A DNA stretch of 64,000 nt from positions 5,952,001 to 6,016,000 of the forward strand of contig CAVUSO010000001.1 in NCBI GenBank assembly GCA_963744145.1. The letters run 5' to 3'. A program made the position numbers and the translations under genes. The DNA comes from an uncultured cyanobacterium. Lineage in GTDB: Bacteria > Cyanobacteriota > Cyanobacteriia > Cyanobacteriales > CAWUOF01. This document shows, piece after piece, positions 1-35,783 of the stretch (positions within the stretch are counted from its first letter, which is position 1; each line of letters begins with the position of its first letter). Under the pieces are notes generated by a model that did not search any database, had not been told where the DNA came from, and saw only the letters and a list, made by a program, of their open reading frames with translations.

Positions 1-28
1 AAAAAAGTTAGATAATTTTAGAAATCAC

Positions 29-613
29 TTGGCAGAGGACCTAGCTATGCTGAGTTGGTTTGCCATAACAGTAATGAGTTTAGGAGATAAAGTCAGATTT
101 TTATGTCAAGATGAAACGCGGATCGGCATGAAAACGATTAGTGGGAGAAAAATTACCATTCGTGGGGTAAAACCAATTGGTAAAGTGCAGTGGAAATTTC
201 AAGCGACTTATATTTATGGCGTAGTAGAGCCAAAGACAGGGGAACATTTCTTTTACGAGTTTACTCATCTCAATAGTCAATGCTTTCAGATATTTTTAGA
301 CTTAGTAGCCGCGCATTTTTCGGATAGTATTTTGATCATTCAGTTAGACAATGGTGGTTTTCATAAAGCTAAAAAGTTGGTAATTCCTAAAAACGTTATT
401 TTAATGTTTCAACCATCCCATTGTCCTGAATCAAATCCAATCGAACAGGTATGGCAGTATCTCAAAAAGGGATTGAGATGGGAATTACCAAGAAACTTAG
501 ATGAATTAAGACTTTTAATTAGTAAAGAACTAGAAAAGATGAATTCAAAAGTCATTGCCTCAATTACGGGACGAGCCTATATATTAGAGGCACTATCTGT
601 AGTCGGTATTTAG
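29..613 (+). mobile_element. IS630-family transposase, C-terminal DDE part (element continues left of window)
   Basis: Motifs QDETR, QLDNGGFH, PESNPIEQVW; followed by GAATTGGTAT-TA end-like sequence. Confidence 0.85.
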
Positions 614-869
614 AGAATTGGTATTACAGCCTATTCCAGGTTTATGAAGTTCATCAAGGTGATCTGTGGTTTCCTGGCGGGTTCATTAATACCTCGACTA
701 CGCTCGGCACAAGGGTTATTTGTGTGTGGCAAATTCAACGGTGAACCCGCCCCTTGTATCTTTAAAGGATACAGATAATTGGACTAACCAGATACAGGTA
801 CATCAAGGATCAGGGAGAAATCTAAAGAAACTAGAAAAGTTTCCGACCTCCGCCCAAGAGAGATGAGAA

Positions 870-1040
870 AGTGTGCTGAAGAACATCAGCAAGTGGTGAA
901 GTTGGCCTGCCCCTTAGACCTCATAAGTCTGTTTTGTAGATAAGCTCCCAGTCGCTGATGACAGACGCACAGAAAGCTCGACAGTATCTAAGGCACTCGT
1001 GGTCACGAGATAGCCTGTATTAACAAGGTTAGTTTAATGT
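870..1040 (+). ncRNA. IS110 bridge RNA (target-binding and donor-binding loops); ends approximate
   Basis: Guides CCTGCCCCT (906-914) and TGTAG (935-939) match the insertion site; ACAGTATCT (981-989) and ACAAG (1023-1027) match the element ends; each pair separated by a hairpin. Confidence 0.8.
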
Positions 1041-1090
1041 CTGTCAAGTTCTCACATATGAAAGAGATCAAGAGACATCAGGAGAAACTT

Positions 1091-2077
1091 ATGACATCTA
1101 CAGTCTTAGGAATTGATATTAGTAAAAAAGACTTTTATGTCGTTTTACTCAAACCGGACTGTGGGAAAAAGCCAAAACCCAAAAAATTTACCAACGATCT
1201 CTCAGGGTTTGGAAGTTTAGCACAATGGCTAAAACAACAAGGTGTGGTAGAACTTCATGCTTGCCTAGAAGCGACCAGTATTTATGGGGAAGCATTAGCT
1301 GAATTTCTCTACCAGAGTGGTTATCAGGTAAGTATCGTTAATCCAGCGCGAATCAAAGGATTTGCCAAAAGTGAACTCCTGCGAACAAAAACCGACGCGG
1401 TAGATGCAGGCTTAATTGCCCGTTTTTGTGCGGCGATGAAGCCGTCACTGTGGACACCAACAGCACCGGAAGTTAAGGAATTACAAGCCCTGCTCAGACG
1501 ACTAGAATCCTTCATCGAAATCGCGCAACAGGAACAGAATCGGCTCGAAACCGAGAGTGAACCTGTCGCACAAATAACGAGAAAGCATCTAGAATATCTC
1601 GCCCAACAACAAGCAGAGATCAAACAATTAATTCGCGACCATTTTGACCAACATCCCCATTTAAAACAACAGCGTGAGCTGTTGACTTCAATTCCGGGAA
1701 TTGGCGAACAAACTGCGGCTGTATTGTTAGCTGAAATTGGTCGGATTACGGATTATAAAAATGCCCGCCAATTAGTCGCTCATGCTGGGTTAAACCCGTG
1801 CGAACGGACTTCAGGAACTTCGGTTCATGGCAAAACTCGTTTGTCTTGTACAGGCAATACTCGACTCCGAAAAGCGTTGTATCTGCCTGCGGTAGTAGCG
1901 ATGCGTCATAACCCGTTACTCAAAGCCATGAGTGAGCGATTATTAGGTCGTGGCAAGGTCAAAATGCAGGTAATTGGTGCCCTGATGCGGAAACTCTTAC
2001 ATTTAGCTTTTGGCATTTTAAAATCCCAACAGCCTTTCGATCCCAATTATGCGATCGCTACCCCTTTACCCGTCTAG
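1091..2077 (+). CDS. IS110-family DEDD recombinase/transposase (ORF track start 1037; likely start 1091)
   Basis: GIDISK, CLEAT, KTDAVDA (DEDD), SIPGIG, ERTSGTS serine loop, ALMRKL. Confidence 0.95.
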   Translation: MTSTVLGIDISKKDFYVVLLKPDCGKKPKPKKFTNDLSGFGSLAQWLKQQGVVELHACLEATSIYGEALAEFLYQSGYQVSIVNPARIKGFAKSELLRTKTDAVDAGLIARFCAAMKPSLWTPTAPEVKELQALLRRLESFIEIAQQEQNRLETESEPVAQITRKHLEYLAQQQAEIKQLIRDHFDQHPHLKQQRELLTSIPGIGEQTAAVLLAEIGRITDYKNARQLVAHAGLNPCERTSGTSVHGKTRLSCTGNTRLRKALYLPAVVAMRHNPLLKAMSERLLGRGKVKMQVIGALMRKLLHLAFGILKSQQPFDPNYAIATPLPV

Positions 2078-2169
2078 ACGGGATCTGGCGGGCGAAATCT
2101 TGCCACCAGAACCTGTTCATCCCTCAACCGAGATGAACAGACAAAACTGACGACTGTGCATCGGGAGGA

Positions 2170-2478
2170 TCTCGCTTAAACAACTACGGAACTGGTTGAC
2201 TTCTATTCCCAGTATTGGTGAACAAACGGTGGCTCTATAGTTAGGGTCAACCCGTCGGGTTTCCAGTGCCAAAAATGCTCGCCTTTCTGCCCACAGTCAC
2301 GATGCTTCACCACCCATTACTCCCATTAATGAGTGAGAGATGATGGCTGCGTGGGTCAGGTAAAAATCCAGGAGATTAGTGCTTTAATGGTAAAATTTCT
2401 ACCCATATTTTGGCGATTTTCCCATCCGCTAAACTCTTTGACCCTAATTAGGCAATTTGGCGATCGCCACCCCTTGAC
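2170..2478 (+). pseudogene. Degenerate, internally deleted copy of the 3' half of the IS110 transposase
   Basis: 2195-2244 resembles 1681-1730 (LTSIPSIGEQTVAL vs LTSIPGIGEQTAAV); 2313-2475 resembles 1912-2066; both end in GCGATCGC(T/C)ACCCCTT. Confidence 0.75.
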
Positions 2479-2872
2479 AAATCAAGACAGTATCTACAGA
2501 GATTCACCAAAAAATCGATCAGGATTAGAGGATGACAAGATTAACAGGATTCGTAGGGGCTGGTGAATGAATTTATGATCACAATCAACCGGGATTTGTA
2601 GGGGCAGGTTCACCAATCAATTCTGCTCCAAACCGATAACTATCATAAACCTGCCCAACCAACACAGATCACTCACAATCTCGGACAGGCAAGATGCCTG
2701 TCCCACCATTCATGCCAAATCTTACTGTACTTCATCAACAGGTCATCCGCTGTATGTAATCGCAGGTAAGCTCCTCTCGGTGACAGCCTGGAAAAAACTT
2801 TAAATAAAATTTTAGTGAATGGCTAATCGGGGAAATTAATATAAATTATGACTTTCCCCGATCTAAATTAAC

Positions 2873-4156
2873 CTACTTATTAGGACGTTGTCTTTGGAGA
2901 AAATCAGGAATGTCCAACCCTGGTTTTGATTCAGATTTGTGCTGAGGTTCAAAAATTGGTGATGGGTGTGGTGTGACAGGTGCAGTCGTTGACCGTTTAC
3001 CAGTCGGTGTTCTGGTAGAAGTTGTCGCAGGTGGTGGTGGGGGAGCTTCACCAGTAAAACCTGTAGCAATCACTGTAATTCTGATTTCACCTTGCAGTCG
3101 TTCATCAATTACTGCCCCAAAAATAATATTAGCATCGGGATCGACAGCTTCATAAATCGTTTCTGCGGCTGCATTTACTTCGTGCAAAGTTAAATCATTG
3201 CCACCAGTAATATTAAAGACAACTCCTTTTGCTCCTTCAATGGAAGAATCAAGTAAGGGAGAAGAAATCGCTGCGATCGCTGCTTCCCTAGCTCGCGATT
3301 TACCAGAACCTACTCCAATTCCCATCATCGCCGAACCAGCATCAGCCATGATCGCTCGCACATCAGCAAAATCAACATTAACTAAGCCTGGGATGGTAAT
3401 GATATCTGATATACCTTGCACCCCTTGACGGAGAATTTCATCAGCATAGCGAAATGCTTCTTGAACTGGAGTATGTTCGGGAATTACTTGTAGTAATTTA
3501 TCGTTAGGAATCACAATCAGGGTATCTACCCGACTTTGTAAAGCTTCTATTCCTTGTTTGGCTTGAGCAGCGCGGCGTTTTCCTTCAAAAATAAAAGGAC
3601 GAGTAACCACACCGACAGTGAGAGCGCCCACTTCTTTGGCCACTTCCGCGACGATCGGCGCAGCTCCAGTGCCCGTACCGCCCCCCATCCCAGCGGTAAT
3701 AAAAACTAAATCAGCATGATCTAGAGCATTAGCAATCTCATCGCGAGATTCCTCGGCTGCTTTTTGACCAATAGCAGGATTACCTCCTGCCCCCAGACCG
3801 CGAGTTAATTTTTGACCAATTTGGAGACGTTTAGAGGCTGCTGAACCGACTAGCGATTGGGCATCAGTATTGATAGTCCAGAAGTCAACTCCCGAAAGAT
3901 CACCTGCAATCATGCGGTTAACCGCATTGCCCCCACCCCCACCGACGCCAATCACTTTGATTCTGGCTATACTACTCGGCACGATGTCATTACTCCTCGA
4001 TTCTTCGCCCGGTATGCCTGTGATATCACGATTTTGGTTTAAATATAACCCAGAATTGCCAAAAGGATTGGCGGGTTCCACTGCCACTGGAAAATTAGGT
4101 TGTTCTTCAGGATGAGGGCTTTTATGGGTGAGCCCCCAGTTATGATTAAGCGTCAT
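2873..4156 (-). CDS. ftsZ: Cell division protein FtsZ
   Basis: [17 protein letters not shown] tubulin signature, C-terminal LDIPDFL. Confidence 0.99.
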
Positions 4157-4418
4157 AGTTATTAGATGGGGGAATTTCAGAGTAATTCGGAGTAAAAAGT
4201 AGTTTTTCAGAATCCATAGCTATAGCCATTAGAATTGGGATTGGTAGATCAACAACTTTTCAACTCCAGGCAGATCAAAGTCCAATATAGGCTAATTGTC
4301 CAAAAAAACCAACTATAGAGAGATGGTTTTTTTAACTATACTTACTTGGCTGTCAACAACCTAGCACGAGGGGGGTTTTAGTACCTTAATATAGCTTCTC
4401 TCACTATTAAAGATAAAT

Positions 4419-5255
4419 TTAGGTATTGGATTTTACTGCTTCATGTGCTGGTCTGATCTGAATTTTGGGTGGAAGATCGGGATTTTTCAAGTCTATATAG
4501 GCAATTTGGTCGGGATTGATATTTTGGGGCAATTGTCGCATTCGGTCAAGCACTTTGATTTGCAAAGCAAATTTGGTACTGTATGGTCCTAAATGTACCA
4601 GACCAATTTCTGTTTTTAAGATCATATTGGCTGGATCTTGCCAATTAATCTCAGAAATTTTTACTGGACTGCTACTAATTACTTGATAAAGCCCGGGCCA
4701 ATAGGGCCGATAATTTTCTCGCATCCCAATTATTTTGAGGTTGGGCAAACCTCGTTTTCCTTCGAGGGATGTATATGCTTCTAAGGATATCCATATTCCC
4801 TGAGCATCTAATAATTTTACCTCGGGAGAATTAGTCGCGCTTTGGTCTGAGGTGATTAGTTGAGCGATCGCGACGGGATGTCGCTCTTGGACCTTGACGG
4901 TTAAACCTGGAGGAAATAGTTGTCTGGTGACTGTAGCTGAAGCGATCGGTCCTTGTGATGCTAGTTGATTGGCGATCGCGACTGGTTGGAGCCGCAGGAG
5001 AGATTGAGGGTAAGATAGTGGTAGGATTGAGCGAATTGCCTGTTCTGACAAAAATTGATTACCAACAATCACGACCTGTTCTGGTTTACGGATTAACCAA
5101 CCTGGTAAGGTAATTGCCCAGATTGAGCCACTTGTCAATCCTCCTAGCACTAAAATTCGCCACATTGTTGTCACGAATTTTCGCCGTCTTTCTTGTCTTA
5201 ATTTTTTGCGCCGACCCACTAATTCTGCTGGGGAAACTGATGCAATACTATTCAT
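4419..5255 (-). CDS. ftsQ: Cell division protein FtsQ/DivIB (POTRA)
   Basis: Basic N-terminus, single TM, POTRA-like region, YIDL motif, upstream of ftsZ. Confidence 0.93.
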   Translation of the reverse strand: MNSIASVSPAELVGRRKKLRQERRRKFVTTMWRILVLGGLTSGSIWAITLPGWLIRKPEQVVIVGNQFLSEQAIRSILPLSYPQSLLRLQPVAIANQLASQGPIASATVTRQLFPPGLTVKVQERHPVAIAQLITSDQSATNSPEVKLLDAQGIWISLEAYTSLEGKRGLPNLKIIGMRENYRPYWPGLYQVISSSPVKISEINWQDPANMILKTEIGLVHLGPYSTKFALQIKVLDRMRQLPQNINPDQIAYIDLKNPDLPPKIQIRPAHEAVKSNT

Positions 5256-35756: not shown

Positions 35757-35783
35757 TAGGGGCGTATTGCAATACGCCCCTAC
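35757..35783. repeat. REP-like palindrome GGGCGTATTGCAATACGCCC (also at 39088-39115, 39765-39792, 41061-41085, degenerate 53648-53675)
   Basis: Five copies read directly, usually framed by GTA(G/C)...(C/G)TAC. Confidence 0.9.

Follow-up and report, generated by a model that had tools for sequence, protein, structure and literature searches.

A 64-kb stretch of contig CAVUSO010000001.1 from an uncultured cyanobacterium (the window, to whose positions all coordinates refer) carries at 755-2495 what is very probably an IS621-type element of the IS110 family, inserted in the target CCCGCCC-CT-ACAGA. Between the two halves of this target lie a left non-coding end (LE) with a bridge RNA, a recombinase gene, a decayed partial second copy and a right end (RE) (Table 1). 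The core dinucleotide CT is found at both junctions (753-754 and 2494-2495), and terminal inverted repeats are absent, as TGTAT... at the left end has no inverted counterpart in ...AGTAT at the right. The predicted mobile unit, 755-2495, has 1,741 bp, versus 1,337-1,687 bp in complete related elements. Family membership, RNA architecture, complementarity of the guides to flanks and element ends, and a target common to relatives are established. The element would add a new cyanobacterial orthologue to the known IS621 group, with a mechanism drawn from this well-studied homologue, and is distinguished by a clade-wide cyanobacterial repeat as its target and by a small composite 3' end.

Table 1. 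Features of the IS621-type element and its target copies, in window coordinates
Feature	Position	Strand	Description
Left half of insertion target	746-754	+	CCCGCCC and core CT (753-754), together CCCGCCCCT; same left flank in main-clade relatives
Left non-coding end (LE), 336 nt	755-1090	+	Starts TGTAT / TGTATCTT; holds -10-like TATCTT (757-762) and the bridge RNA
Bridge RNA core	887-1044	+	Target-binding arm ~884-960, donor-binding arm ~961-1044; from covariance model R1 and folds
Left target guide (LTG)	906-914	+	CCTGCCCCT, RNA CCUGCCCCU; 8/9 to the left flank, mismatch G:U-compatible
Right target guide (RTG) and handshake AU (940-941)	932-941	+	RNA UUUUGUAG; core-proximal GUAG pairs with CTAC, 4/4
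Left donor guide (LDG)	981-989	+	ACAGTATCT, RNA ACAGUAUCU; matches the right end (2487-2495) at 9/9
Right donor guide (RDG) ACAAG (1023-1027) and handshake GU (1028-1029)	1023-1029	+	Reverse complement of CT+TGT, 753-757
Recombinase open reading frame (ORF), 328 aa	1091-2077	+	ATG 1091, AGGAG 8 nt upstream; start conserved in relatives
Degenerate right end of the intact copy (RE-A)	2060-2086	+	Colinear with the true right end; reads TTTACC...ACGGGATCT, in full TTTACCCGTCTAGACGGGATCT
Decayed partial second copy	2087-2495	+	409 bp; colinear with recombinase gene ~1516-2086; ends in a well-kept right end
Functional-looking right end (RE-B)	2474-2495	+	-35-like TTGACA (2474-2479), left donor ACAGTAT and core CT (2487-2495, ACAGTATCT)
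Right half of insertion target, ACAGA	2496-2500	+	Right flank starts AC in 43/45 related elements
Second unoccupied target-like copy	2553-2563	-	CCAGCCCCTAC; one mismatch, not wobble-compatible
Unoccupied target copy	2594-2608	-	CCTGCCCCTACAAAT (reverse complement); perfect match to LTG and extended RTG, 14/14

Recombinase, bridge RNA and guides

The recombinase matches Pfam PF01548 (3e-24) and PF02371 (1.7e-28), both above gathering scores, and NCBIfam NF033542, "IS110 family RNA-guided transposase" (241 bits, cut-off 140), and current annotation pipelines would give the protein its correct name. Residues 6-319 match the solved recombinases of IS621 (8wt6, E 1.1e-73) and ISCro4 (9t56, E 3.4e-74). 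The catalytic residues named for IS621, D11, E60, D102, D105 and S241 (PMC11208158), all have identical equivalents in an HMMER alignment to 8wt6. The ORF listing starts at ATG 1037; relatives keep ATG 1091 instead, and this start, preceded by its AGGAG motif, gives the product of 328 aa.

For the bridge RNA, covariance model R1 was based on the five distant lineages alone (46-57% protein identity), with no close relative among them, and found one match in the 64-kb window, at 887-1044 (+), which is full length and scores 77.1 bits (E 2.7e-19). Four helices (20 pairs), drawn by hand on the same five lineages in place of an RNAalifold structure of close relatives, pair in 85.7% of cells, versus 27-51% with slid partners, a contrast inflated by the use of the same five sequences for drawing and for scoring. 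Both sides change in 11 of the 20 pairs, a number reached by 0 of 500 shuffles. When the guides are held unpaired, 16 of 17 sequences, the five distant lineages included, share one two-arm fold, in which each arm consists of a basal stem, a capping hairpin and an internal loop whose two sides each carry a guide. The initial annotation of this DNA, made from the sequence alone, had named an IS110 bridge recombinase with bridge-RNA architecture and had proposed scoring of the RNA by covariance models; the domain, structure and covariance-model matches bear it out, and a direct check of the window found all its listed strings where it had placed them.

The same annotation had read four guides in the LE, and all are present (Table 1), with 8/9 positions of the LTG matching the left flank, 4/4 of the RTG the right flank, 9/9 of the LDG the right end and 5/5 of the RDG the left end. 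The LTG mismatch is, as proposed, compatible with G:U pairing, and the LTG matches the free site at 2598-2608(-) at 9/9. The RTG had been given as TGTAG at 935-939, and it extends to TTTTGTAG at 932-939; its position holds, whereas a pairing of 5 nt does not, since natural pairing by IS621 rules is 4 bp (CT+AC), and the target proper is therefore the 11-mer CCTGCCCCTAC. Among 20,000 shuffles of the LE, an LTG with ≤1 mismatch appeared 102 times and an exact LDG 30 times, and the two appeared together in none.

If 2495 is joined to 755, TTGACA (2474-2479) is followed after 18 nt by TATCTT (757-762), and a second TATCTT spans the 2495/755 junction itself, 11 nt from TTGACA. Both boxes are kept in relatives: TTGAC[AT] lies 15-16 nt before the end in 55 of 57 right ends, and left-end positions 3-8 read TATC[TC]T in 42 of 46 (TATCTT in 35, TATCCT in 7), an arrangement that gives spacers of 17-18 nt. 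The sequence therefore fits the 18-nt junction promoter proposed in the initial annotation, the promoter itself being predicted. A promoter and terminator scan of the linear locus gave no excess over shuffles and no hit at the bridge RNA. By a mechanism derived from that of IS621, the element would be excised from the chromosome in circular form, with RE joined to LE, and the junction would create a sigma-70-type promoter (TTGACA-18 nt-TATCTT) from which the bridge RNA would be transcribed. One internal loop of this RNA would pair with the circle junction ACAGTAT-CT-TGTAT and the other with the genomic 11-mer CC(T/C)GCCC-CT-AC, which lies in a short repeat common in filamentous cyanobacteria. 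The DEDD/serine recombinase (1091-2077), together with the bridge RNA (core 887-1044), would then exchange strands at the CT core. Circle formation, promoter activity, recombination and continued mobility of the window copy are predictions of this scheme.

Guides, flanks and the target repeat in related elements

One scan of genome contigs gave 60 related loci (labelled L002 etc.), and 54 bridge-RNA-bearing elements were tabulated, the window element included; these are not independent, as several are copies within one genome. Most relatives are from Microcoleus, Chamaesiphon, Tychonema and Kamptonema and have 66-89% protein identity. More distant relatives (46-57%) comprise a second Chamaesiphon type, metagenome-assembled genomes of Chloroflexia, Rhizobiaceae and Ardenticatenales, and an uncultured bacterium. 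The unique flanks of the window element were found in none of the fetched loci, indicating that its source genome is not among these relatives.

The LTG, chosen as the best match within a 58-nt segment, could be compared with its own left flank in 45 elements: 35 match perfectly, seven, including the window element, have one mismatch, two have two and one (L025, with a visibly degenerate loop) has four. A random 9-mer reaches ≤1 mismatch in 12 of 2,000 trials. Six LTG classes occur, each equal to its own flank: CCCGCCCCT, ATTGCCCCT, ACCCAACCT, TGGTACACT, ATAGCCCCT and TTTAACGCT. Furthermore, the RTG CCCGTAG of L047 faces the right flank CTACGGG (7/7), the RTG GGAG of L055 occurs with a flank CT-CC in place of CT-AC, and L045 and L048 combine the LDG ACGGTATC with the right end ACGGTATCT. 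LDG and right end, compared in 45 elements, agree perfectly in 27, with one mismatch in 13 and with two in five.

The main-clade LTG is CCCGCCCCT in all elements (three end in G), and the RTG is TTG[C/T]GTAG or a near variant. Beyond CTAC, the main-clade RTG does not follow the right flank and, consequently, only 4 bp of RTG pairing were counted. This agrees with the natural 4-bp RTG pairing and 11-bp target (ATCAGGCCTAC) described for IS621 (PMC11208160). Tracking of the right flank by a fifth RTG position was considered and rejected, as T-type guides face A in 7 of 9 flanks and C-type guides face G in 5 of ~20.

Every main-clade element with its left boundary in the locus sits after (A)ACCCGCCC-CT, and AC follows the right end where present. 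Mapping of other copies, suggested in the initial annotation, thus placed related elements in (A)ACCCGCCC-CT-AC and found no unrelated sites in the main clade. The target is not peculiar to the window copy and is common to the whole Microcoleus/Chamaesiphon clade; both this and the composite 3' end described below had been overlooked. Free copies of CC[CT]GCCCCTAC number 27 in 308,908 nt of the relatives' loci, versus ~0.3 expected, and have an extended consensus around GGTGAACCCGCCCCTAC. In the window, CCNGCCCCTAC occurs twice versus 0.03 expected, and the target motif has only three copies, all within 746-2608. The target copy is intergenic, between a transposase fragment and ftsZ. The perfect unused target reported ~100 nt downstream is confirmed as the reverse complement of 2594-2608. 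It is part of an inverted repeat of 9 bp, with 37 nt between the arms, which does not fold better than shuffled sequences (z = -0.99). The term REP-like (repetitive extragenic palindrome) is therefore fair for repetition in relatives, whereas the palindromic character is so far weak.

The surroundings of the target copies recur in other genomes, with 85% identity between 715-754 and both L022 and L044 and 76% between 2594-2656 and L031; the repeat unit thus exceeds the 11-bp target. A chance Rfam match to mir-449 at 2587-2670 reflects a hairpin at that place. Other short palindromic repeats with the GCCCCTAC tail of the IS target are found in the window at 35776 and 39785 (+), 39088 and 53648 (-) and 42969 (+), with GCGTATTGCAATACGCCCCTAC occurring four times among them and GGCAATTTTAAATTGCCCCTAC once; yet another repeat of that kind, GAATTGCCCCTAC, serves as target for the distant Chamaesiphon element type. 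Several loci have two neighboring elements, some in inverted orientation; in L014, L016 and L044 the two lie within ~7 kb, and L035 (-) has a second element type beside the first near 4635. These paired elements suggest that insertions cluster in arrays of the target repeat. A search for the target strings in published papers returned only unrelated primer and promoter strings among the matches listed, and a literature search on bridge RNA and IS110 in cyanobacteria matched only papers unrelated by title, with no description of this clade in the collection searched.

Variant bridge RNAs recur across different genomes. The donor loops of L011, L017, L019, L020, L023, L025 and L057 have the LDG GCGGTATCT, although the right end of the element reads ACAGTATCT (2 mismatches), the RDG is replaced by CTCT(C/T)G in L014, L016, L017, L041 and L044, and the 3' side of the target loop reads GCGGACA in place of GCTCCCA in L003, L017, L023, L024 and L044. 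In addition, L002, L004, L013, L024 and other Microcoleus loci carry tandem ~20-nt units (type GGCGATCGTACCGACAATCA) between the start of the left end and the bridge RNA. These arrays in the 5' part of the left end account for the range of element sizes (1,337-1,687 bp) and are absent from the window copy. Accumulation of non-coding repeats beside IS110 transposases is mentioned in 10.64898/2026.08.14.744561.

Composite 3' end and state of the window copy

The right end of relatives lies ~21 nt after the last aligned codon, and the colinear place in the window is RE-A. RE-A fails the comparison with the LDG (2 mismatches), whereas RE-B matches it at 9/9; similarly, the ACAGA that follows RE-B completes the repeat consensus, and the GGCGG that follows RE-A does not. 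On these two grounds, the mobile unit is predicted to extend to 2495. Global alignment and translation in three frames show several deletions in 2087-2495, the sequence after RE-A, and stops in every frame; its identity is 66-79% to the intact copy (blastn) and about 66-71% to relatives. RE-B nevertheless has every invariant feature and only 4/32 mismatches to the right-end consensus, of which two fall where relatives themselves differ (binomial P ~0.014 at the background divergence of the remnant). This conservation suggests that selection continued to act on RE-B as the remainder of the remnant decayed. The composite could have arisen either by tandem duplication or by an insertion next to or within an older copy and a later deletion. 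The earlier description of the copy as intact is correct in part: the right end that belongs to the ORF has degenerated, and the one that looks functional lies 409 bp further, at the tip of the decayed partial copy.

A number of observations weigh against the main reading of 755-2495. RE-A differs from the right-end consensus of relatives at 7/32 positions, including the -35 box and two LDG positions, the composite 3' structure is found in none of the 60 related loci, and no relative among these loci exceeds 89% protein identity. A blastn search of the 64-kb window found a single copy, and these results on copy number, composite structure and identity give no support to activity of this particular copy. 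Furthermore, the window guides CCTGCCCCT and TTTTGTAG predict the target CCTGCCCCTACAAAA, and the occupied site CCCGCCCCTACAGA deviates from them at two positions, both G:U-compatible; the target loop may have drifted after insertion or may track a host-specific variant of the repeat. The failure of the main-clade RTG to follow the right flank beyond CTAC belongs here too, as do several results on the RNA. The helix contrast is inflated as described, and the two-arm folds were made under a constraint that leaves the guides unpaired; folding of the region, as proposed in the initial annotation, thus yields the two-arm form with guides constrained, whereas the unconstrained fold of 862-1058 is only modestly better than those of shuffles (z = -1.97; 3 of 200 shuffles fold equally well or better). 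RNAalifold on 37 close relatives gave just 32 pairs, three of them covarying, with some guide bases paired, a result made uninformative by too little variation among these sequences. Rfam 15, searched in E-value mode over 600-2700, has no match in the bridge-RNA region and just three chance-level matches in all (mir-449, sX5 and snoTBR17, E 2.5-4.3).

Coincidental guide matches, with target choice determined by the protein and no guide RNA in the left end, would accord with the Rfam result and are nonetheless extremely improbable, given that no shuffle produced LTG and LDG together, that the six LTG classes covary with their own flanks, that helices show compensatory changes, that the covariance-model match has an E value of 2.7e-19 and that the mechanism is established for the homologue IS621. 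It is also very unlikely that the mobile unit is a short form, 755-2086, ending at RE-A, with 2087-2495 as debris of an older neighboring insertion. RE-A is indeed colinear with the right end of relatives and ends in ATCT, the short form would measure ~1,332 bp, near the 1,337-1,687 bp of relatives, and a modular IS110 element with several circle types, ISPpu9, is described in PMC12288879. However, RE-A differs from the LDG at 2/7 non-core positions, neither wobble-compatible, and has lost the -35 box (TTTACC); GGCGG after RE-A mismatches the RTG, while ACAGA after RE-B completes the repeat consensus of 2594-2608 and of relatives.

A greater, although still doubtful, possibility is that the element is of the right kind and the window copy is a fossil that no longer moves, its ORF joined to a foreign right end by a second insertion or by tandem duplication with subsequent deletion. 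The single copy in the window, the restriction of the composite to this locus among all those compared, the decay of RE-A, the deletions and stop codons of the remnant and the perfect free target left unused 100 nt away would all be expected of a fossil, and expansion of IS110 loci by partial modules in tandem is reported to be common (10.64898/2026.08.14.744561). This is opposed by the full-length ORF with all catalytic residues, the matches of LDG to RE-B (9/9) and of RDG to the left end (5/5), the intact -35 and -10 boxes, and the conservation of RE-B (4/32 mismatches, P ~0.014) within a remnant otherwise 66-71% identical to relatives. Conversely, it is rather unlikely, though worth stating, that the composite is a living right-end replacement that drags 409 bp of wreckage with it and whose target loop has also drifted from the clade consensus. 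The drift may consist of C->U at the third LTG position and a single G->U within the extended part of the RTG, and together these changes give an exact match to the variant CCTGCCCCTACAAA, which is free 100 nt away. If true, a natural change of target would have taken place within one repeat family, and the old site would still be usable through G:U wobble.

Relation to known IS110 elements and genomic context

The IS621-type element at 755-2495 shares with IS621 of Escherichia coli (PMC11208160, PMC11208158) the two Pfam domains, the five catalytic residues, the CT core, a left-end bridge RNA with a target loop and a donor loop, the CT-AC right target half, insertion into a short genomic repeat, a -35 box in the right end and a -10 box at left-end positions 3-8. 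A junction promoter is described for IS621. The handshake dinucleotides AU and GU correspond to A81/U82 and G166/U167 of the wild-type bridge RNA (PMC11208158). The donor ACAGTAT-CT-TGTAT, which the initial annotation had equated with that of IS621, is identical in the 44-bp donor oligonucleotide of the supplement of PMC11208158 (...ACAGTATCTTGTAT... / ...ACAGTATCTTGTATTATCCC...), where the target oligonucleotide reads ...ATCAGGCCTACAGA.... The two elements differ in that identity extends to about one in two aligned residues, the left half of the target reads ATCAGGC in IS621 and CC(T/C)GCCC in the window element, and the window copy carries the 409-bp decayed partial module before its right end. 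In addition, with a transcription start near 769, the RNA from the 336-nt left end would have ~115 nt ahead of its target arm, in contrast to IS621, whose 177-nt RNA starts ~14 nt into the left end. A "distant" blastn search with 755-2100 against 5,426 E. coli genomes found no DNA match, and the comparison with IS621 consequently rests on the protein alignment and the supplement oligonucleotides.

ISCro4/IS622-type orthologues are reportedly used for genome engineering. ISCro4 is the best PDB match of the window protein (9t56, E 3.4e-74, residues 6-319), from which the window orthologue differs in its cyanobacterial host and in having an activity that is predicted only. ISPpu9 and ISPpu10 of Pseudomonas putida (PMC12288879) are also IS110 elements that insert in repetitive extragenic palindromes, and ISPpu9, a modular element, has a further module after the transposase and forms circles of several types. 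The extra module of ISPpu9 is the sRNA gene ssr9, whereas that of the window copy is a decayed second transposase piece; moreover, ISPpu9 circles are described as lacking a hybrid promoter (PMC12288879), and the window sequence predicts one. Half-site recombination is, like the modular ISPpu9, a related precedent. The expanded IS110 loci of 10.64898/2026.08.14.744561 similarly have partial tandem modules downstream of a conserved transposase module and an internal boundary that resembles the left donor only, here RE-A. The expansion in the window differs in being small (409 bp), free of cargo genes and old enough for decay.

Mechanistic knowledge is unchanged by the window element. Protein, RNA, both donor ends, an occupied target and a perfect free target are readable within 2 kb, and the clade of dozens of elements with one target in Microcoleus, Chamaesiphon and Tychonema offers convenient natural data on how guides covary with targets and tolerate mismatches, such as G:U pairs. 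A recombinase active in cyanobacteria might also be obtained from the element. The suggested value of the element as a candidate editing tool is generic: target loops are reprogrammable in any case (PMC11208160), and the natural target therefore has little bearing on use as a tool. The composite 3' end is a small natural case of the recently described expansion of IS110 loci (10.64898/2026.08.14.744561).

The element lies between another insertion sequence and cell division genes. An ORF running off the start of the window (2-613, +) matches DDE_3 (PF13358, E 1.7e-16), represents the 3' part of another insertion sequence and is directly upstream of the IS110 target repeat. Directly downstream, on the opposite strand, 2873-5255 (-) holds ftsZ (PF00091, PF12327) and a gene for an ftsQ-type POTRA protein. 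The sequence GCGATCGC, which we take to be the HIP1 signature of cyanobacteria, occurs 42 times in the window versus 0.26 expected, including positions 2051 and 2460 in the two right-end regions.

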